Shown: positions 880 through 7,508, counted from the first letter of the stretch. The stretch: 7,508 nt of DNA from Okeania sp. (GCF_035285525.1 NZ_JAYKGW010000051.1:1-7508); one strand, 5' to 3'. A program made the numbers and translations. Notes: generated from the letters alone by a model not told the origin.

Positions 880-1004
880 TTGCCGTGATATTGTTGCTCA
901 AACCAGGAAACTTGGTTGATAAACCCGGTTTCTGCGTAAGTCCTAATTATGTAAAATTCAGATAATTATTATATTCTAGTCATTGCGACTGAAAGGAAGT
1001 GAAA

Positions 1005-1036
1005 GGAAGCAATCTCCTAACCCTGAGATTTCTTCC
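1005..1036 (-). terminator. Candidate intrinsic terminator for the 700-aa minus-strand gene
   Basis: The inverted repeat is GGAAGCAATCTC (1005-1016) and GAGATTTCTTCC (1025-1036), 11 of 12 pairs with an 8-nt loop. Read on the minus strand, the hairpin is followed at once by TTTCACTTCCTTTC, a U-rich tract. It lies 73-104 nt downstream of the stop at 1109-1111. An adjacent 15-bp palindrome CCTATCG-T-CGATAGG sits at 1035-1049. No free-energy calculation was done. Confidence 0.4.
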
Positions 1037-1108
1037 TATCGTCGATAGGGACAACTACTCTGAAAAGCTTATCCGAAAAAGTTTTTCTCTTATTTGTTAC
1101 TCCTCTAG

Positions 1109-3211
1109 CTACATAGAATCAAAAATTCTTTCTTGTAATTGTCTTTGCACATTACTCAGCATTGCCTGATTATACTCCAATATTGGATACATTTGTTTAT
1201 ACAAACTTTCCATTTCTTCATAGGATAAAGACGCAAGCTTTAAAATTTCTTGACAAACCATTTGAAACCTTTTAACAGGATCGATAACTTCATCATAGGA
1301 TTCGTCTACAAAATCGGAAAAAGTTTGAAAACCTAAATTTCTAAGATCCTTTAAAGTACCTGGTTGTCCAAGAACAAGGAAAGGATTTAAAGAAACAATA
1401 GATTTAATAGTTTTTTCTGTAAATCTGCGATTCCTTTTACCATCATCAAAATTACTTTCAGTAACGATATAAAAAAAAGAACTGCTAAACAATTCATCAT
1501 TGATTTTGAATACAAATTCACCTCTTTGAGCGTTGAATTCTTTTGTTTTATCTAGGTCTATTCTTAAAGGCAAAATACTATAAACTTCTTTGTATAGAGA
1601 ATCAACGTCGATATTTTTTGTAGTTACAGGTGAAATTAGATCGCGGATAAAATTAAGGTTTGGCTGCTCCTCAGGCATTAAATTAAAAGAAAAGTAACTA
1701 TCATCAAGTAAGCCTTCAGAATAAAAAAACATCGTTATTGCAATCCTGTGGATCCGGGGCATATTATTCAGACATAAAAACTTCTTTTGCCTTACTGAGT
1801 TAGGATTCCCTTTAACTTGAGAACTAAAAGAATTAAAATTCCAAAAATGGCTGTTGAATGGAAGAATATTTATCTCAGGTTGAGAATAATAATCTTTCGA
1901 GTGAGTTTTGAGGTAGATGGGTAAACAATTATTTTGTGATAAACAAACAAAAGAGTTATGAGTACACTCCAAGACTTGAGTGACTCGAGACATCATATTA
2001 AAGAACTCAGTGTGTTCCGGTATAGCACCCTCTCTACTAGAATCTAGGATAATTTTTGCATTGTTCTTAGAGAGTAAGTTTTTGAGAAAGTACGGAATCA
2101 GAAATAAAATTCTGTCCGCATCTACGAGCTGATGTGTAGGGTAGTTAGCACTTATCCAAAAACATAACACAGTTTTTATTTCTTTCTTCCACAGATTTGT
2201 CGGTAGTTTAGTGCCTAAATATTGACAATATCTACCAAAAATTCCCGTTATAATATTAACATTAATAAATATTATATTTTTGTCTTCTAAGTAATTAAAC
2301 ATTGGAAATTCACTTACTAATTCCATGAGAGCAAAAAAATCTTGCTTGGTAATAAAATCTGCAATCCATAGATAAAAGACTACATCAATATATCTACTAA
2401 TTAAATCCTTATTTTTTATTGTGGGTATAATAGGTATGACTGAGGCAACCTCTTTAATTGCCAAATCATGTTCTGCTTTGTTTCTGGCAAATCGAAATAA
2501 AAGAAAAGCTCTCTCTAATTTTTCTGCATTCTTATCAGTCTTTAGCTGATGAGCAGCACAGCTAAAGATAGTTTTCATCATCCGATCAAAATCACTTTTA
2601 CTCTGATGCCACTCACTAAACTTAGATACCTGTTCTGCATATCTAAATACTTCTTTTATTACGTCTACGTGTAATAATAATTTAATTTTTGGTAAAGTTA
2701 TATTGATATTTTCTTCAATAACTTTGCTCGCAGCAAAGTTATTTTCTCTTGTAGAAAGCTTGTTGGACTCAGACTTTAATATTTTGAGAAAATTTTCTAC
2801 TTCAAATATATCTTTATTTTCACTTTCATTTTCTCTCTTTTCTTGGAACTTATTTGAATTATCATCCTGAAATTTTAGTTTTCCCAATTTGCATAAAGCA
2901 TCAGTAAAATTTTCATCAATCTCCACTGCTTTTTGATAACAAATTAAAGCATTATCTAACTCACCACATTTCTCTAGCTCTTGCCCCAGATCGTACTGAA
3001 ACCAGGCAGAAGAGCTATTTAGTTCAACTGCTTTACGATAAGCGGTAATCGCTTCATTCAAATTACCCTTTTTCGACAAAGTAGTGCCTAAACCATGATA
3101 GTACCAAGCAAAATTTGGCATTTGCGCAATTCCTTGACGATACAGCACTACCGCTTGTTCTAGTTTACCTTCAGCAACGAGCTTACGCCCTTGTGTTAAA
3201 AAATAATTCAT
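1109..3211 (-). CDS. TPR-repeat protein fused to a large uncharacterised domain with a GT-B / GT10-like (fucosyltransferase-like) C-terminal motif pair; function unproven
   Basis: This is a 700-codon uninterrupted ORF. Residues 3-104 form three canonical 34-aa TPRs (YFLTQGRKLVAEGKLEQAVVLYRQGIAQMPNFAW, YYHGLGTTLSKKGNLNEAITAYRKAVELNSSSAW, FQYDLGQELEKCGELDNALICYQKAVEIDENFTD), followed by a capping helix. Residues 114-160 are a charged, N/E/K-rich linker. Residues 476-489 read KKFLCLNNMPRIHR (nt 1745-1786). Residues 579-640 read FFYIVTESNFDDGKRNRRFTEKTIKSIVSLNPFLVLGQPGTLKDLRNLGFQTF (TESN...FTEK at nt 1412-1462). These parallel, by eye, the GT10 pattern (hydrophobic)-SN-x-x-x-R ... F-E-N-S-x(n)-Y-x-TEK-x(n)-P-(I/V)-x-x-G. 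Residues 160-475 show no motif I recognise. Confidence 0.85.
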   Translation of the reverse strand: MNYFLTQGRKLVAEGKLEQAVVLYRQGIAQMPNFAWYYHGLGTTLSKKGNLNEAITAYRKAVELNSSSAWFQYDLGQELEKCGELDNALICYQKAVEIDENFTDALCKLGKLKFQDDNSNKFQEKRENESENKDIFEVENFLKILKSESNKLSTRENNFAASKVIEENINITLPKIKLLLHVDVIKEVFRYAEQVSKFSEWHQSKSDFDRMMKTIFSCAAHQLKTDKNAEKLERAFLLFRFARNKAEHDLAIKEVASVIPIIPTIKNKDLISRYIDVVFYLWIADFITKQDFFALMELVSEFPMFNYLEDKNIIFINVNIITGIFGRYCQYLGTKLPTNLWKKEIKTVLCFWISANYPTHQLVDADRILFLIPYFLKNLLSKNNAKIILDSSREGAIPEHTEFFNMMSRVTQVLECTHNSFVCLSQNNCLPIYLKTHSKDYYSQPEINILPFNSHFWNFNSFSSQVKGNPNSVRQKKFLCLNNMPRIHRIAITMFFYSEGLLDDSYFSFNLMPEEQPNLNFIRDLISPVTTKNIDVDSLYKEVYSILPLRIDLDKTKEFNAQRGEFVFKINDELFSSSFFYIVTESNFDDGKRNRRFTEKTIKSIVSLNPFLVLGQPGTLKDLRNLGFQTFSDFVDESYDEVIDPVKRFQMVCQEILKLASLSYEEMESLYKQMYPILEYNQAMLSNVQRQLQERIFDSM

Positions 3212-3484
3212 AATCTCACTCAGTAGGAAATTTTAAGGTTATTAAAATCTTGTTATCTGGTTTTGTTTCTTAATTTCTTGAGTAACTCAACCAAACTTAC
3301 GGTTGCTAATTTTTTGAAACACCGATGTTACACTAATGTCTAGTAATAATTTATAAATGGACACCTAAGTGGCTATAGTGGCCTCTCAAGCTTTAAATAT
3401 TACTTTAGGAAAATGGTTTAATCCTCAATTTTCAAAGCTTTTACTCATAAATTATGATAATGCAGTTTTGAAGTCAAACCTAAG

Positions 3485-3512
3485 AAATTTTATCATCATT
3501 ATGATAAAATTT
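3485..3512. promoter_or_regulatory. Perfect 12-bp inverted repeat (candidate operator) in the divergent intergenic region
   Basis: AAATTTTATCAT (3485-3496), then catt, then ATGATAAAATTT (3501-3512), with perfectly complementary arms. The 10-mer ATTATGATAA occurs twice, at 3451-3460 and 3498-3507. The first copy overlaps a second small palindrome, TCATAA-A-TTATGA (3445-3457). The palindrome is directly visible, but the regulatory role is an inference and the region is very AT-rich. Confidence 0.3.
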
Positions 3513-3576
3513 ATCCTACTGAAATAATTTCCTGAAGTTATTGCACAGTCAAAGTTTTGTATGTCCATGAAATCTT

Positions 3577-3604
3577 ACTTTTGACTTTTGATCTTTGACT
3601 TCGG
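3577..3604. repeat. Heptanucleotide tandem repeat, 4 units (ACTTTTG ACTTTTG ATCTTTG ACTTCGG)
   Basis: There are two perfect and two degenerate 7-bp units, read directly. The array generates two TTGACT hexamers 14 bp apart, at 3581-3586 and 3595-3600. Confidence 0.7.
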
Positions 3605-3624
3605 TAAAATGCTATGATTACAAT
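3581..3624 (+). promoter_or_regulatory. Two overlapping candidate sigma70-type promoters for the methyltransferase gene
   Basis: The first is TTGACT (3581-3586), N18, TAAAAT (3605-3610). The second is TTGACT (3595-3600), N18, TACAAT (3619-3624). They lie 27-70 nt upstream of the ATG at 3651. GGAG at 3631-3634 is a distant and weak SD candidate. Hexamer matches like these are common in AT-rich DNA. Confidence 0.3.
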
Positions 3625-3650
3625 CTAATTGGAGTATTGAAGAAAGTATA

Positions 3651-4442
3651 ATGAGAAATCAAATTAACACTAATTGGCAAAGTGAAAAAAATGATGAAAT
3701 TAATTTCTGGCGAAACCATATTGCTACAGGAGGTGGTAAATATCAAGAGGATTATAAAGCTCGATTTAATCCAGATTTACCTCTTCAAAATCATATTGCT
3801 CGATATATCAAAAAATCTGTTAAACCAGGTTCAACTGTTAAGATATTAGATGCTGGTTCTGGCCCTTATACAATACTAGGTAAGTGTTTAGCTGACTACA
3901 AATTAGAAATTACAGCCGTAGATGCCTTAGCAAATGAATATAATCAAATTTTGTCAGAATTTAATGTTATTCCTTTAGTAAAAACAGAGCTTTGTGATGT
4001 TGAAGGATTAATTAATTACTTTCCAGACAATTACTTTGACTGTGCTCATATACGAAATGCACTAGATCATTCTTACGATCCTTTATTAGGAATTTTACAG
4101 ATGATTGATGTGGTTAAACCAGGAGGATATGTTTTAATTGATACTTACATTAATGAAGGAGATGAAGGAAATTACCATGGTTTACATAGTTGGAATTTTT
4201 GTCCAAAGAACGATAAGTTTATCATCTGGAACCAGCAAGGTAAGTCTCTAGTAGTAAATGATTATATTCAAGGTGTTGGATACATTGAAGAAATGAAAGT
4301 CAACCAGGGAGCTAAAGCAAAGAAGAGACCTATGTTTATAGCTATTAAAAAAACAGAAAAAACAATATTTGAAAGTGCATCTAATTTTACTTTAAGAGCT
4401 TTGGAAGTATCTGATTCAAGCAATTTTCAAAAGGATCAATAA
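3651..4442 (+). CDS. Class I SAM-dependent methyltransferase (small-molecule or sugar O-/N-methyltransferase type)
   Basis: Motif I is VKILDAGSGPYT (nt 3837-3863 cover V63-G71). An acidic residue ends beta-2 (LEITAVDA). The post-II/III region is FDCAHIRNALDHSYDP...VVKPGGYVLI. There is no (D/N/S)PP(Y/F) or PCQ motif, so it is not a DNA methyltransferase. Stop TAA at 4440-4442. Confidence 0.85.
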   Translation: MRNQINTNWQSEKNDEINFWRNHIATGGGKYQEDYKARFNPDLPLQNHIARYIKKSVKPGSTVKILDAGSGPYTILGKCLADYKLEITAVDALANEYNQILSEFNVIPLVKTELCDVEGLINYFPDNYFDCAHIRNALDHSYDPLLGILQMIDVVKPGGYVLIDTYINEGDEGNYHGLHSWNFCPKNDKFIIWNQQGKSLVVNDYIQGVGYIEEMKVNQGAKAKKRPMFIAIKKTEKTIFESASNFTLRALEVSDSSNFQKDQ

Positions 4443-4466
4443 ATTATCTTTGAAGGATATATAGTC

Positions 4467-4494
4467 TTGACTAATTTGGTTAGGTACATATATA
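4467..4494 (+). promoter_or_regulatory. Candidate sigma70-type promoter for the first sulfotransferase gene
   Basis: TTGACT (4467-4472), N16, TATATA (4489-4494), about 100 nt upstream of the ATG at 4593. The -35 hexamer is part of the palindrome TAGTC-TT-GACTA (4462-4473), which is related to the TAGTCAAGACT repeat ends. Confidence 0.3.
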
Positions 4495-4592
4495 GATAGA
4501 TTTAGGAAAGAGAGACTAGGAAATAGAGAAAAATACTTGATTATTTCTATATAAAAATTGATTGATTTTTTTGTTATTGGAGATGTGTAGCC

Positions 4593-5531
4593 ATGAATAA
4601 ATCAAGAGATAAATCTTCTTCTTACTTTCTTCCTATACCTATCCTATATATAATTCTGATTTGTCTACTCATAAGAGTTTTTCAGAAAGCCCTAAGTAAA
4701 AGTTTATTGCAGTTTTTTTTAAGGAAGTCAATATTGTATTTATTTCCGCCCATAAACAAATGTATGAAAGAAATCGAAAAATTTTATCAGTGTATGTCTC
4801 AGAAGGAGTGTAATTACCACATTCATATTTCTGAACAAAACTCCTATATATACTTTGAAGTACCCAAAGTTGCTTGTACTACAGTAAAATCAACCTTGCA
4901 AGAACTTGAAGCTCTGACATTAGGTCAGAATTTACCATCAAAGGAAAGTTCAATAGTTCACAATAAGAAGCTTTCTCTACTACGATCGCCTTCAGACATT
5001 GGAATTGATAATTTTTTGGCGATGCTAAATAACAACAATGTGTTTAAGTTTTGCTTCGTAAGAAATCCTTATACAAGATTGCTTTCTGTATATCTTAACA
5101 AGATGAGTTGGCGTGAAGGGCAATTTTACAAGAAAATTGCTGAAATACTAGATATGTCAGTAAGTGAAAGAATTACATTTAAACAGTTTGTTATGGCAAT
5201 AAAAAATCAATCTCCTTTGGCGATGGATCCCCACTGGCGTGTACAGACATATCAAACATTTTATGGTTTAGTGGATTACAATTTTATCGGTCGCTTTGAA
5301 AACCTTAATCAAGATTTGAAAGTGGTTTTGAATAGGATAGAAAATTTTTCCGATCAGAAAAATAAATGTGCTGAAGCGATAGAAAAATTAAGTTTTATTC
5401 GTGGAGGCAAAAAAACTAATGCTGATTCAAAACTTAGAGATTTTTATGGCACTCAGGAGATTAGAGATTTAGTATTTTCTATATACAAAGAAGATTTTCA
5501 TAACTTTGATTACTCTGAATATTTAATTTGA
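4593..5531 (+). CDS. Sulfotransferase, Sulfotransfer_2 family (carbohydrate sulfotransferase-like), with a predicted N-terminal transmembrane anchor
   Basis: The 5'-PSB-like loop is FEVPKVACTTVKS (PKVACTTVKS at nt 4863-4892). The 3'-PB-like motif is FKFCFVRNPYTRLLSVY (FVRNPYTRLLSVY at nt 5055-5093). Family-typical DPHWRVQ and FIGRFENLNQDL follow. The SD GGAGA (4579-4583) lies 9 nt before the ATG at 4593. Residues 11-30 (YFLPIPILYIILICLLIRVF, nt 4623-4682) are a hydrophobic helix. Alternative internal starts at 4764 and 4794 have no SD. Confidence 0.85.
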   Translation: MNKSRDKSSSYFLPIPILYIILICLLIRVFQKALSKSLLQFFLRKSILYLFPPINKCMKEIEKFYQCMSQKECNYHIHISEQNSYIYFEVPKVACTTVKSTLQELEALTLGQNLPSKESSIVHNKKLSLLRSPSDIGIDNFLAMLNNNNVFKFCFVRNPYTRLLSVYLNKMSWREGQFYKKIAEILDMSVSERITFKQFVMAIKNQSPLAMDPHWRVQTYQTFYGLVDYNFIGRFENLNQDLKVVLNRIENFSDQKNKCAEAIEKLSFIRGGKKTNADSKLRDFYGTQEIRDLVFSIYKEDFHNFDYSEYLI

Positions 5532-5723
5532 AAATAGTCAAGACTTACACTAACAAGACTTACACGGGAGGAACCCGGTTTCTACGGTAAATCATTGTTT
5601 TTGACAGTAAACATCTAGGAGAAACCGGGTTTCAGGAGCCGCCTGCGTAAGTCCTAATTTTAGTAGATTGGGAATAATGCTTAAATCATGCGCCATAATA
5701 TAGCGGTACTGCGCAAGTCTTGA
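5532..5723. mobile_element. Composite nested repeat region (outer and inner inverted repeats of the AAGACTTAC / GTAAGTCCT family), copy 2
   Basis: The outer pair is TCAAGACTTACAC (5538-5550) and TGCGCAAGTCTTGA (5710-5723). CAAGACTTACAC is duplicated at 5539-5550 and 5554-5565. The first 16 bp, AAATAGTCAAGACTTA (5532-5547), are identical to 6720-6735. The region starts at the base right after the TGA stop at 5529-5531. Confidence 0.6.
5555..5655. repeat. About 100-nt long-hairpin MITE-like unit (inner element of copy 2)
   Basis: Stem 1 pairs 5555-5565 with 5645-5655 (9 of 11 pairs). Stem 2 pairs GGAACCCGGTTTCT (5570-5583) with AGAAACCGGGTTTC (5620-5633), giving 13 Watson-Crick pairs plus 1 G-U, around a 36-nt loop. 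The right end CTGCGTAAGTCCTAATT (5643-5659) is identical over 17 bp to 932-948. Confidence 0.65.
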
Positions 5724-5884
5724 TATACCAATCCTATGTGAGTTGTAATATTTGTGTGGCAAAAAAAAGTCACAATTCATGAGTGAGGAGCTATATTTTG
5801 TTAAAGGTTTTCAGCTTAAATTAACTATTATGAAATTTGTCACAACCAATGTAGGATTGCTATAGCTTATAAAAAGGAAGAGAT

Positions 5885-6712
5885 ATGTACAAAGATAAAC
5901 TCAAAGCACCAATCACACTAATTTCACATGGTAGATCGGGAACATCCTTACTACAAAATATTTTTGATGCTCACCCAGACATATCAGTAGCTGGAGAAAC
6001 AGCCGACTTAATATTCGGCACTTGGTATTCAATCTCTAAGATTAAGGGAATCGTTCCCGGTTTGTTTGATGAAAACGGAAAACTTGTTCCTTGGGAAGAG
6101 CGTGTTGCTCTGGGAGTACGTGCTGTTTTTGATCAAATTTTTAATCTTGATAGAAAATATTGGATGCAGAAACCAATTTCACAACCTTTTATAATGCAAT
6201 TTTTAAAGATGCAAGAAAAGAATGAAAAAGATTGGTTTAATGTTTATTGGTCTGTCTTAGACCAAGTCTTTCCAGAAGGCAAATTTATCACTATTCTCAG
6301 AGAACCACGGGATGTTGTTCTTTCTTCTAAGGAGTATTGGGGTCGGGATCACGCTAATGTATGGGGTAATATTGCGACAATGGCACGATGTATTGCACAT
6401 GAGTCATCAAAAGTCAATTATGCGGTTAGTTTTGATGAGTTAGTTCAAGAACCTGAGCCAACTCTAAAAAAGCTTTTTGCCCATATTGATGTTCCTTACA
6501 GTTCAGATGTTTTAGCTGCATTAGAACATATTTATGTTCCTGACCAAAAAAAGTGGAAACAGGATAAAAGTCTTTTTGAAGACAAAATTAAAAGGGGTTT
6601 TTCACGGCAAAAAGACTGGAAAGATTTGGATATGTCTATAGTAAAAACTGAAGATTTAGAGGCTATTGAAAAACTTTGGAATAAATTTGGTTATTCTTTA
6701 AATCTAAATTAG
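5885..6712 (+). CDS. PAPS-dependent sulfotransferase, Sulfotransfer_1/3-type (P-loop-like GRSGTS)
   Basis: The 5'-PSB loop is ISHGRSGTSLLQNIFDAHPDI (HGRSGTSLL at nt 5927-5953). The 3'-PB motif is ITILREPRDVVLSS (REPRDVVLSS at nt 6299-6328). A good SD, AAGGAAG (5874-5880), precedes the ATG at 5885. Stop TAG at 6710-6712. I could align no similarity to the neighbouring Sulfotransfer_2 gene. Confidence 0.85.
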   Translation: MYKDKLKAPITLISHGRSGTSLLQNIFDAHPDISVAGETADLIFGTWYSISKIKGIVPGLFDENGKLVPWEERVALGVRAVFDQIFNLDRKYWMQKPISQPFIMQFLKMQEKNEKDWFNVYWSVLDQVFPEGKFITILREPRDVVLSSKEYWGRDHANVWGNIATMARCIAHESSKVNYAVSFDELVQEPEPTLKKLFAHIDVPYSSDVLAALEHIYVPDQKKWKQDKSLFEDKIKRGFSRQKDWKDLDMSIVKTEDLEAIEKLWNKFGYSLNLN

Positions 6713-6719
6713 TTTTGAC

Positions 6720-6817
6720 AAATAGTCAAGACTTAAACAAAGCAACCAAGAAACAGGGTTTATTGCCGTGATATTGTGGCTAAAACCAAGAAATTTCCGT
6801 AAAGAAACCCGGTTTCT
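6720..6817. mobile_element. MITE-like dispersed repeat, copy 3 (short form lacking the nested insert and the right terminal GCGTAAGTCCT)
   Basis: 6728-6761 aligns to 730-763 at 29 of 34 positions. 6762-6817 aligns to 879-933. The 115 bp at 764-878 of copy 1 is absent here. It starts 7 nt after the TAG stop. Confidence 0.6.
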
Positions 6818-6834
6818 ATGAGAAACCGGATTTC
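6804..6834. terminator. Strong hairpin between convergent genes (possible bidirectional terminator or RNA-stabilising stem)
   Basis: GAAACCCGGTTTCT (6804-6817), loop ATG, AGAAACCGGATTTC (6821-6834), 13 of 14 pairs. There is no clear U-tract on the plus strand. On the minus strand it is followed by TTTACGGAAATTT, a weak tract. It sits between stop 6712 (+) and stop 6866 (-). Confidence 0.3.
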
Positions 6835-6843
6835 TGGGTTCCC

Positions 6844-6864
6844 TTAATTATTAATTATTAATTA
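6844..6864. repeat. Heptanucleotide tandem repeat (TTAATTA) x3
   Basis: Three perfect units at 6844-6850, 6851-6857 and 6858-6864, ending 1 nt before the stop codon (6866-6868, TAA on the minus strand) of the pentapeptide gene. Confidence 0.8.
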
Positions 6865-6865
6865 T

Positions 6866-7417
6866 TTAATATCCATCAGGACTAATAGTTGTACGATCGT
6901 ATTCTGCCATTGATAAATCAACTTGTCTAGCTCGAAACAAATTACACCATCCTAATTTAGCATTATCTAACTTTGCTTTTTCTAGGTTAGCTCCTCTTAA
7001 ATCTGCATATCTTAAATCTGTATCTCTTAAATCTGCATTATATAAATTTGCACCTTGTAAATTAACTCTAACTAAATTTGCACCTCGCAGATTAGCATTA
7101 CGCAAATTAGCTCTAGATAGATTTCCCTCTTGAATATTTGTATTTGATAAATTAGCTTTATAAAGTTTAATATCTCCCATTTCTGCCTCTCGTAAATTAC
7201 ATCCTTTAAGGTTAGCTTGATTTAAGTTGGCATAGGGTAAATAAGCTTTGGTTAAATTACAACCTTCTAAATTAATTCCTTCTAAATCAGCTTCAAATAA
7301 TTCAATATTACTTAAATCAATCCCAACAAATTCTCTTTGCCCCTCAGCATATTTCCATAGTAATTCCTCTGAACCCATTTTCTCCATTTTCGTATTTTTA
7401 AAGCTAATTGTTAGCAC
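6866..7417 (-). CDS. Pentapeptide-repeat protein (Rfr-type right-handed beta-helix), small and soluble
   Basis: About 26 consecutive A(D/N)LXX-type pentapeptides, for example ANLNQ ANLKG CNLRE ... ANLRN ANLRG ANLVR VNLQG ANLYN ADLRD TDLRY ADLRG ANLEK AKLDN AKLGW. The listed start at 7417 is a GTG. In-frame ATGs at 7387 (MEKMG) and 7378 are equally plausible, so the start is uncertain by up to 13 codons. Confidence 0.85.
   Translation of the reverse strand: MLTISFKNTKMEKMGSEELLWKYAEGQREFVGIDLSNIELFEADLEGINLEGCNLTKAYLPYANLNQANLKGCNLREAEMGDIKLYKANLSNTNIQEGNLSRANLRNANLRGANLVRVNLQGANLYNADLRDTDLRYADLRGANLEKAKLDNAKLGWCNLFRARQVDLSMAEYDRTTISPDGY
6994..7038. repeat. Three tandem 15-bp units inside the pentapeptide CDS
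   Basis: CTCTTAAATCTGCAT (6994-7008), ATCTTAAATCTGTAT (7009-7023) and CTCTTAAATCTGCAT (7024-7038). Units 1 and 3 are identical. They encode the DLRDT DLRYA DLRGA segment on the minus strand. Confidence 0.8.
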
Positions 7418-7444
7418 TTGATAACCATCATTTATTAAATAAAT

Positions 7445-7464
7445 AATAAGTATTTATACTTATT
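7445..7464. promoter_or_regulatory. 20-bp palindrome upstream of the pentapeptide-repeat gene (candidate operator or hairpin)
   Basis: AATAAGTAT (7445-7453), TT, ATACTTATT (7456-7464), with perfect 9-bp arms. It lies 28-47 nt upstream of the GTG at 7417 and 58-77 nt upstream of the ATG at 7387. The context is AT-rich, so chance is not negligible. Confidence 0.25.
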
Positions 7465-7508
7465 TGGATTATCAAAATTTATACTAAGATGGCTTTACAA
7501 AAATTATT

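Follow-up and report, generated by a model that had tools for sequence, protein, structure and literature searches.

We analyzed a 7,508-bp stretch of DNA (the window), which is a whole contig from a metagenome-assembled genome (MAG) assembly of Okeania sp., a marine filamentous cyanobacterium, and focused on a minus-strand gene (1109-3211) that encodes a 700-aa protein. The C-terminal 350 residues of this protein are best read as a GT-B-type glycosyltransferase (GT) of a very large unannotated family, probably nucleotide-sugar-dependent, and based on the predicted structure and sequence comparisons we give this reading a probability of about 0.6. It is based on the observations described below on how the domains are laid out, which fold is predicted, what is conserved, how large the family is and which genes lie nearby. 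As a fusion with accessory domains the gene is fairly ordinary, yet it exposes a very large GT-like family that has no curated model. A preliminary description of the window, made from the bare sequence, had placed the 700-aa open reading frame (ORF) on these coordinates, where it is indeed present, and had read the product as a tetratricopeptide repeat (TPR) module, an orphan region and a divergent pair of motifs resembling those of GT10 fucosyltransferases. An exact-sequence look-up found the product to be identical to WP_324235625.1 / MEB3340208.1, whose database name is only "tetratricopeptide repeat protein [Okeania sp.]".

Predicted fold and conserved residues of the C-terminal module

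Residues 150-700 were modeled with AlphaFold2 using a 126-sequence alignment, giving a predicted template modeling score (pTM) of 0.79 and a predicted local distance difference test score (pLDDT) of 85-98 over most of residues 200-551 of the fragment; a model from the single sequence had a pLDDT of 37.8 and was unusable. In full-length numbering, the model consists of a helical region (157-300), a connector, two alpha/beta lobes (349-451 and 476-614) and terminal helices (645-700). The predicted module thus has the two Rossmann-like lobes (fragment residues 200-302 and 327-465) and C-terminal helices (fragment residues 496-550) of a GT-B fold, in line with what the preliminary description had supposed for this part of the protein. 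We compared the model with PDB using Foldseek, with a query that included the helical N-terminus of about 200 residues, and examined the best 50 of 329 matches, nearly all of which were GT-B enzymes or GT-B-fold relatives. These included the GT20 enzymes OtsA (5tvg, E=2e-4) and Tps1 (5hut), Asp1 (5vaf), the GT4 enzymes BshA (3mbo) and PglA (8dqd), the GT41 enzymes XcOGT (2vsn) and SPY (8dth/7y4i), EXTL3 (8og1), the T4 alpha-glucosyltransferase AGT (1y6f), SenB (8jjn), a starch synthase and three UDP-GlcNAc 2-epimerases (1v4v, 5enz, 3ot5). The expectation that structural comparison would lead to GT10 in particular was not borne out, as the GT10 structures 2NZW, 5ZOI, 8D0O, 7YRO and 9S6A were all absent from these best 50 of 329 matches, and GT10-annotated viral proteins in BFVD ranked 34 and 42 (E 6e-3 and 2e-2), amid other glycosyltransferases. 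The fold prediction therefore supports the GT-B idea and not GT10 specifically.

Conservation was measured over 124 aligned homologues, or 116 sequences for columns of the N-terminal lobe (N-lobe). The motif segments named in the preliminary description lie exactly at residues 476-489 and 579-631, although the gap from FTEK to NPF is eight residues and not nine, and the four residues it singled out (R489, E585, E599, K600) are kept in 95-98% of the homologues. Within the first motif N482 is conserved in 96%, H488 in 81% and R489 in 98% of the sequences, followed by S508 (94%), P548 (97%), D552 (96%) and E585 (95%). E599 and K600 (98% each), P610 (99%), F611 (96%), the invariant G627, T630 (95%) and F631 (99%) lead into the family's most conserved block, in which D636 is kept in 85% and E637, Y639 and D640 are invariant. 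This DE-x-YD block, together with R648 (99%) and N681 (98%), was missing from the earlier list of residues. The resulting family signature is K-K-F-L-x-x-N-x6-R ... V-T-E-[ST] ... T-E-K ... P-F ... G-F-x-T-F ... D-E-x-Y-D. That so many charged and polar positions are almost invariant speaks for a catalytic role.

The best-conserved stretch, residues 470-700, is the conserved core of the family (8,934 representatives, see below) and is the presumed donor-binding lobe. The N-terminal half of the module is far more variable. Two of its positions stand out: E394 (nt 2030-2032), just after a beta-strand, is acidic in 95% of the 116 sequences (E in 70%, D in 25%), and N427 (nt 1931-1933) is kept in 84%. 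From its conservation and position, E394 may be the catalytic base.

A very large family without a curated model

In an exhaustive HMMER scan we compared residues 150-700 with 1.84 billion cluster representatives, of which 8,934 matched at E<=1e-3, among them 3,668 with E<=1e-10 and 40 with E<=1e-30. This overturned the notion of a rare family, which had come from the 8 relatives returned by a word-indexed search. Most of the matches spanned fragment residues ~320-540 (full-length 469-689), and many started at ~200 (full-length 349). The typical member is a standalone protein of 330-470 aa and most members are without TPRs, while some hold two tandem modules (including P0010 and P0017). Approximately 30 members were scanned against Pfam, and besides the module they contained only TPRs, a UDP-glucose/GDP-mannose dehydrogenase or a methyltransferase. 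No NCBIfam or Pfam family covered the module in the Okeania protein or in the 9 and then 20 further members searched, neither a 9-sequence nor a 126-sequence family profile found any PDB chain, and no PHROGs model matched the family.

In a genome scan, members were found in cyanobacteria, alphaproteobacteria, Bdellovibrionota, Bacteroidota, Marinimicrobia and Nitrospirota, as well as in a Pacearchaeota MAG. Among the viral contigs of IMG/VR, at least 238 stretches carry the family, some on contigs of up to 360 kb, and in BFVD the predicted structure was matched by 22 models named "uncharacterized protein [uncultured Caudovirales phage]" and one mimivirus model (E=3e-15 to 6e-7). The viral assignment calls for caution because it rests on IMG/VR and uncultured-phage bins, and tblastn searches of cultured-phage genomes (INPHARED) with both the Okeania domain and a viral-contig member gave no match. 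A separate observation concerns four short metagenomic homologues (P0002, P0003, P0005, P0006), which start with MG-x-x-L-N/S; this start recalls N-myristoylation signals and would suggest a eukaryotic-virus or eukaryotic origin for the subgroup.

The size of the conserved block, the hosts and the annotation history of the family recall a chlorovirus glycosyltransferase family that has been characterized. Domain 2 of A064R from PBCV-1 (A064R-D2) transfers alpha-L-rhamnose from UDP-beta-L-rhamnose with inversion and independently of metal; this domain and A071R, biochemically validated or proposed rhamnosyltransferases, have been presented as a GT family of their own (PMC9614988). The two families were likened by description only: A064R-D2 is a unit of about 225 aa (aa 213-438), equal in size to the conserved block of our family, it "escaped in silico analysis", and it has many uncharacterized bacterial homologues as well as giant-virus ones, including a GT10-annotated Pithovirus protein (PMC9614988). 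Its inverting, metal-independent reaction is as expected for GT-B, and it is followed by a methyltransferase domain, as is often the case in that family (PMC9614988); fusions of our family to methyltransferases were found too. On the other hand, no chlorovirus protein was present among the 24 family-level structural matches in BFVD at E<=1e-3, where standalone A071R-like proteins would be expected, which is a mild argument against identity. We consider it unlikely, if the least unlikely of the alternatives, that the Okeania module belongs to the A064R-D2/A071R family; if it did, our family, though absent from Pfam, would be known biochemically through one member that is already characterized.

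Resemblance to the GT10 donor site

The likeness to GT10 was tested at the profile level. H. pylori FucT (2NZW) and segments of FucTA, 7YRO and FUT9 taken from PDB alignments served as seeds for a diverse set of GT10 C-domains (120 sequences, each with PF00852), from which a 107-sequence profile was made for HHalign (HH-suite). Against this profile the family C-terminal lobe (C-lobe) gave a single match of 42 columns with a score of 25.5, P=0.0046 and a probability of 7.6%, pairing "y.SyfsIVTET...TEKt.KPi...hPFIvvG.Pg" of the family with "S.yKF.LafENs...YVTEKlf.al.aGsVPIy.GaPN" of GT10. When the columns of the GT10 profile were shuffled 150 times, the scores averaged 12.0 (standard deviation 2.8), and the observed score was reached once. 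A reversed GT10 profile gave P=0.12, an earlier 4-sequence GT10 profile gave P=0.047, and GT10 against GT4 gave P=0.48; a GT4 profile against the family, a weak control for generic GT-B similarity with its 4 sequences, gave P=0.64.

In a second test, the family hidden Markov model (HMM) was run against sequences with filters off. Nineteen of the 120 GT10 sequences scored at >=5 bits and six at >=8 bits, compared to ~0.25 and ~0.05 per shuffled set and none at either threshold among reversed sequences. Among 1,066 unrelated ORFs of the retrieved loci, five reached >=5 bits and three reached >=8 bits, and the top three of these five are probably divergent family members. The residue-level HMMER alignments agreed across vertebrate, plant and bacterial GT10 sequences.

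The alignments can be read against FUT9, in which E137 is the base, R202 and K256 act on the diphosphate, and N195 and N246 are hydrogen-bond partners of the donor (PMC12717137, a 2025 review); its sequence has the motifs VVS-N-x6-R and FE-N-x8-E-K. Both HHalign and HMMER aligned E599-K600 with the GT10 TEK, at the start of a helix in the model (fragment residues 450-457), within a C-lobe element common to both families (strand ending E-[ST/N], loop, helix starting T-E-K, strand P-x-x-x-G-x-P). The spacing N482-x6-R489 equals N195-x6-R202 of FUT9, and in the model the two residues have the strand-loop-helix placement expected of the GT10 pair, whose Arg is R195 in H. pylori FucT, but these residues were paired with the GT10 Asn and Arg only in a sub-threshold alternative HHalign alignment (P=0.09), and HMMER extended the main match upstream in another register that placed the GT10 Arg helix on a different family helix. 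The motif scheme of the preliminary description is co-linear with GT10 only given a helical insertion of ~50 residues between its first and second motifs, and the AlphaFold2 model shows such an insertion. In the N-lobe, E394 follows a strand and may correspond to the catalytic Glu of GT10 (E137 in FUT9, E95 in H. pylori FucT). Full-module HHalign aligned the C-lobe only, with no detectable similarity to GT10_N.

We weighed whether the family is a highly diverged true member of GT10 that would use GDP-beta-L-fucose, with R489, E599 and K600 as its contacts, and form alpha-fucosides. The local likeness to the alpha1,3-FucT motif is specific and reproducible, the GT4 control is without it, a GT-B fold (predicted here) is common to both families, among non-family BFVD matches the highest target-normalized TM score (0.48) belongs to a Bodo saltans virus protein annotated as GT10, and fucose is common in cyanobacterial extracellular polysaccharide (EPS) (PMC8205485). 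Against membership, the Pfam check proposed for Glyco_transf_10 came back empty: PF00852 and PF17039 gave no match at E<=1 with the Okeania protein, at E<=10 with 9 members or at E<=1e-4 to 0.05 with 20 further members. The FEN asparagine (N246 in FUT9) is S586 in the Okeania protein and S/T in the family consensus VTE[ST], the G-F-x-T-F...D-E-x-Y-D block, R648 and N681 have no equally conserved GT10 counterpart, and the fusions and neighbors described below point to products of UDP-glucose/GDP-mannose dehydrogenases and to deoxy-sugars rather than to fucose specifically. Membership in GT10 thus appears quite improbable. The motif pair noticed in the preliminary description stands as a reproducible resemblance, but not as a family assignment. 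The donor site most resembles that of GT10, while the tests that define GT10 (HMM similarity, structural neighbors, the FEN asparagine) failed. At the level of sequence, we regard the short, specific resemblance to GT10 donor elements as real, far below family membership, and compatible with either distant common ancestry or convergence. Nothing singled out GDP-fucose, which the preliminary description had named as the donor contacted in GT10 enzymes.

Gene context and fusions

The 700-aa protein is encoded in a cluster of glycan-related genes (Table 1). Its gene is convergent with that of a GT4 glycosyltransferase and divergent from that of a methyltransferase, which is followed by genes for two sulfotransferases. 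A Synechococcales MAG (JAABRE010000089.1, 1-11109; L002) has a DUF6212 gene, a GT2+GT4 fusion, a Sulfotransfer_2 gene and two Sulfotransfer_3 genes, followed by a TPR plus family-module protein. The association is conserved between the two clusters, since the Synechococcales GT4 (E=9e-95; the GT4 domain of the 882-aa fusion), Sulfotransfer_2 (2.7e-76) and Sulfotransfer_3 (8e-122) proteins are clear orthologues of those in the window. No literature was found under the term DUF6212, and the paper on synechan (xss) mentions no TPR protein or comparable component. In a Xenococcaceae MAG, a protein with many TPRs and the family module adjoins an FkbM-type methyltransferase, and other bacterial loci contained GT2, GT4, an AsnB-type amidotransferase, a methyltransferase, a GT32-like gene, a UDP-glucose/GDP-mannose dehydrogenase and GDSL esterases.

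Two or more copies of the family were observed in 58 of 96 loci, with five in one locus. In the viral loci examined, the paralogues were interleaved with UDP-glucose/GDP-mannose dehydrogenases, a GDP-mannose-dehydratase-type epimerase, B12-radical-SAM enzymes and DUF6071, and no recognized glycosyltransferase was found among the scanned neighbors. We refer to such loci as sugar islands; those on the IMG/VR contigs L092, L031 and L042, as well as the loci L007 and L011, hold three to five divergent paralogues and several ORFs without a Pfam match, and the same gene set was observed in marine Flavobacteriales and Marinimicrobia MAGs. The module is fused to a UDP-glucose/GDP-mannose dehydrogenase in P0132 and in the BFVD entry A0A6J5TB28, and to an S-adenosylmethionine (SAM) methyltransferase in a 633-aa ORF of L042 (5539-7437) and, weakly, in P0024. 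These associations and fusions are those expected of linkage-forming glycosyltransferases, and apart from the fold no argument for the function is stronger.

Several points weigh against this reading. The Foldseek matches in PDB are weak (E 2e-4 to 0.1, target-normalized TM score 0.30-0.44), and at the profile level no sequence match to a curated GT family is significant. Proteins with the GT-B fold also include 2-epimerases, Asp1-type accessory proteins and pyruvyl- and glycerophosphotransferases, some of which were among the Foldseek matches, and the Okeania cluster is visible only within a 7.5-kb MAG contig. The GT4 enzymes of EPS clusters, such as the neighbor in the window, share the superfold, the cluster type and a topologically equivalent acidic pair in the C-lobe (E-x7-E), but the family differs in the lack of profile similarity noted above, in its E...E-K with variable spacing, and in its flanking motifs.

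The module could have a GT-B fold without being a glycosyltransferase. It might transfer a non-sugar group, such as pyruvyl or glycerophosphate, onto a glycan, it might epimerize nucleotide sugars, or it might be a scaffold without catalytic activity, as Asp1 is. The Foldseek matches to the three 2-epimerases, to Asp1 and to a WcaK-like pyruvyl transferase, as well as the richness of the window in glycan-decorating enzymes, are consistent with such a role. We judge it more doubtful still than membership in GT10, given the near-invariant charged and polar residues, the fact that motif similarity was detectable to a single known family, which consists of glycosyltransferases, and the viral arrays, which in the loci scanned hold no other candidate glycosyltransferase beside the nucleotide-sugar enzymes and whose 4-5 divergent paralogues are typical of linkage-specific glycosyltransferases.

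Domain layout and the closest relative

The N-terminal three and a half TPRs claimed for the protein were confirmed. Pfam matched residues 2-113 with TPR_11 (E=1.7e-25; 88.9 bits against a cut-off of 26.8), TPR_1 (7.4e-17; 60.8 bits) and TPR_2 (1.3e-14; 53.5 bits), and the matches to PDB sequences (consensus TPR proteins and the TPR regions of OGT and SPY) all fell within residues 8-123. Beyond the TPRs the preliminary description had found almost no assignable motif and had spoken of an orphan region of about 300 aa. The databases are indeed empty here, with no match in Pfam, NCBIfam or PDB sequences for residues ~130-700, but the region can be divided into a linker, a domain of helices and a GT-B-like N-lobe with a large set of homologues. 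It is not an orphan, because residues 118-700 are 66% identical to the closest relative and residues ~349-469 are common to many homologues. The helical domain (157-300) was modeled with moderate confidence and matched no family; it is kept in the closest relative and partly in P0011-P0016 and P0029. No hydrophobic or transmembrane-like segment was found across the 700-aa protein, which is presumably soluble for that reason, and we rejected the possibility of a secreted or membrane protein on the same ground.

The closest relative (P0009, from SRA run SRR6713268) has 1,023 aa and is 68% identical overall. BLASTP aligned residues 1-117 with its residues 1-117 (72% identity) and residues 118-700 with its residues 448-1022 (66% identity), leaving ~330 extra in-frame residues (118-447) at the 117/118 junction of the Okeania protein (window 2860/2861). 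Besides more TPRs, the extra part has a G-x-S-x-G motif (VIAGVSAGGYAALLLG) within a segment that resembles alpha/beta-hydrolases. The difference reflects either a clean internal deletion in the Okeania protein or an insertion in its relative. A perfect hairpin with a 12-bp stem was also observed within the coding region, at 2717-2743 (AATAACTTTGCT CGC AGCAAAGTTATT), at the boundary of the linker and the helical domain (residues ~157-165).

The combination of TPRs with a GT-B transferase had been called an unusual architecture. This was overstated, since N-terminal TPRs and a GT-B catalytic region are the defining layout of GT41 OGT and SPINDLY (PMC10027727, PMC9715652), and TPR fusions recur within the family (P0009, P0014, P0022, P0024, P0036, P0042, L002, L003). 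The Okeania protein has the same order of parts in a soluble protein, but 3.5 TPRs compared to 11-13.5 in GT41, a linker and a distinct helical domain between the TPRs and the catalytic lobes, a catalytic domain unrelated in sequence, and a polysaccharide-like gene context. It is the least probable of the alternatives that the TPRs and helical domain pick substrates for an OGT/SPINDLY-like enzyme that glycosylates Ser/Thr of cytoplasmic proteins and builds no polysaccharide: the part order, the solubility, TPRs most similar to those of OGT, and Foldseek alignments of 585-657 columns with XcOGT and SPY (best probability 0.95-0.97) fit such an enzyme, but the TM score to GT41 structures is <=0.31 with a root-mean-square deviation of ~18 A, the OGT and SPY sequence matches in PDB lie within residues 11-114, Pfam Glyco_transf_41 gave no match, most family members are without TPRs, and the surrounding GT2/GT4, sulfotransferase and nucleotide-sugar enzymes are of the polysaccharide type.

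Proposed mechanism

Taking the module as a GT-B-type glycosyltransferase, we propose a working model in which we infer catalysis, residue roles, donor, acceptor and TPR function. The protein would be a soluble multi-domain enzyme in which the TPRs (1-117) and the helical domain (157-300) precede a two-lobed GT-B-type module of ~350 residues (349-700). The conserved C-lobe would bind the nucleotide-sugar donor, with N482 and R489 and the E599-K600 pair holding the sugar-diphosphate as the equivalent Asn, Arg and Glu-Lys do in GT10. E585 and the DE-x-YD block may complete the donor pocket, assuming that these residues cluster in the cleft between the lobes. The variable N-lobe would bind the acceptor and supply E394 as the general base, and transfer would require no metal and would probably proceed with inversion, as it does in GT10 and many GT-B enzymes. 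The TPR and helical domains are likely accessory, because most family members are without them; they would most likely dock the enzyme onto partner enzymes and, less likely, select a protein acceptor as in OGT and SPY. In Okeania the enzyme would act in a glycan pathway alongside a GT2/GT4 enzyme, a methyltransferase and two sulfotransferases, which makes an extracellular polysaccharide or glycoconjugate with methyl or sulfate groups the probable product.

More tentatively, the C-terminal 350 residues could represent a new family at the CAZy level, an ancient sister of GT10 with thousands of members. It would be the main linkage-forming enzyme of glycan islands on uncultured-phage and giant-virus contigs and in bacterial EPS clusters, with the TPR-fused cyanobacterial forms tethering it to the sulfated-polysaccharide machinery. 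If the module is a glycosyltransferase as predicted, ~9,000 sequence clusters labeled "hypothetical" or "TPR protein" would become recognized glycosyltransferases, and an annotation gap would be closed both for the sulfated polysaccharides of cyanobacteria, in which biotechnology has an interest, and for the sugar islands on viral contigs, where the family may provide the only candidate linkage-forming enzymes. GT10 would gain a distant prokaryotic and viral relative useful for tracing the evolution of the donor site. For the Okeania gene alone the gain would be modest: its annotation would improve, and mutagenesis would have well-defined target residues.

Features of the window and minor observations

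Table 1. Coordinates of genes, protein regions and motifs in the 7,508-bp window.
Feature	Coordinates	Strand	Basis or remark
Whole gene, 700-aa protein	1109..3211	-	ATG start, ORF list
Three and a half canonical TPRs, residues 1-117	2861..3211	-	Pfam, PDB matches
Charged low-complexity linker, residues 118-156	2744..2860	-	pLDDT <50 in model
All-helical domain, residues 157-300, ~7 helices	2312..2743	-	AlphaFold2 helices H8-H151 (fragment numbering), pLDDT 55-81
Poorly predicted connector from helical domain to putative catalytic module, residues 301-348	2168..2311	-	pLDDT 38-51
N-terminal alpha/beta Rossmann-like half of GT-B-like module, residues 349-469	1805..2167	-	Alternating strands and helices E200-205...E299-302, pLDDT 78-93
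C-terminal alpha/beta half and long terminal helices, residues 470-700	1112..1804	-	pLDDT mostly 95-98
Motif 1, KKFLCLNNMPRIHR, residues 476-489	1745..1786	-	Beta-strand ending at N482, loop, R489 at helix start (model)
Motifs 2-4, FFYIVTE585S...FTE599K600...NPFLVLGQPGTL...GFQTF, residues 579-631	1319..1477	-	Strand, loop, helix, strand
D636-E637-S-Y639-D640 block	1292..1306	-	Most conserved block of the family
GT4 glycosyltransferase, C-terminal part, cut by contig end	33..716	+	Pfam Glycos_transf_1, 1.2e-27
Class I SAM-dependent methyltransferase	3651..4442	+	Pfam Methyltransf_11, 2.4e-07
Sulfotransfer_2-family sulfotransferase, hydrophobic N-terminal segment	4593..5531	+	PF03567, 7.6e-26
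Sulfotransfer_3-family sulfotransferase	5885..6712	+	PF13469, 7.1e-17
HetL/Alr5209-like pentapeptide-repeat protein, contig end	6866-7417	-	Pfam Pentapeptide, 8.3e-61

The Sulfotransfer_2 protein is probably membrane-anchored because of its hydrophobic N-terminal segment (YFLPIPILYIILICLLIRVF); PF03567 is best known from eukaryotic Golgi carbohydrate sulfotransferases. At the far end of the contig, 15-nt tandem DNA repeats at 6994-7053 reflect the repeats of the pentapeptide-repeat protein itself. No Rfam family was found in the window, and promoter and terminator scans of it gave nothing decisive. A dispersed intergenic repeat was observed 3' of the GT4, Sulfotransfer_2 and Sulfotransfer_3 genes (729-948, 5532-5660 and 6720-6837), with segments that are 86-100% identical; its termini (GGACTTACGCA ... 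TGCGTAAGTCC) are inverted and its core (GAAACCCGGTTTC) is a palindrome. Judged by these features, it looks like either an element of the miniature inverted-repeat transposable element (MITE) or repetitive extragenic palindromic (REP) type or a set of shared terminator hairpins. A 62-aa ORF (5592-5780) lies inside one of the copies and is probably not a gene. The G+C content was ~0.40 in the GT4 gene (1-750) compared to ~0.30 elsewhere (1000-7508), including the TPR gene and the sulfotransferases.

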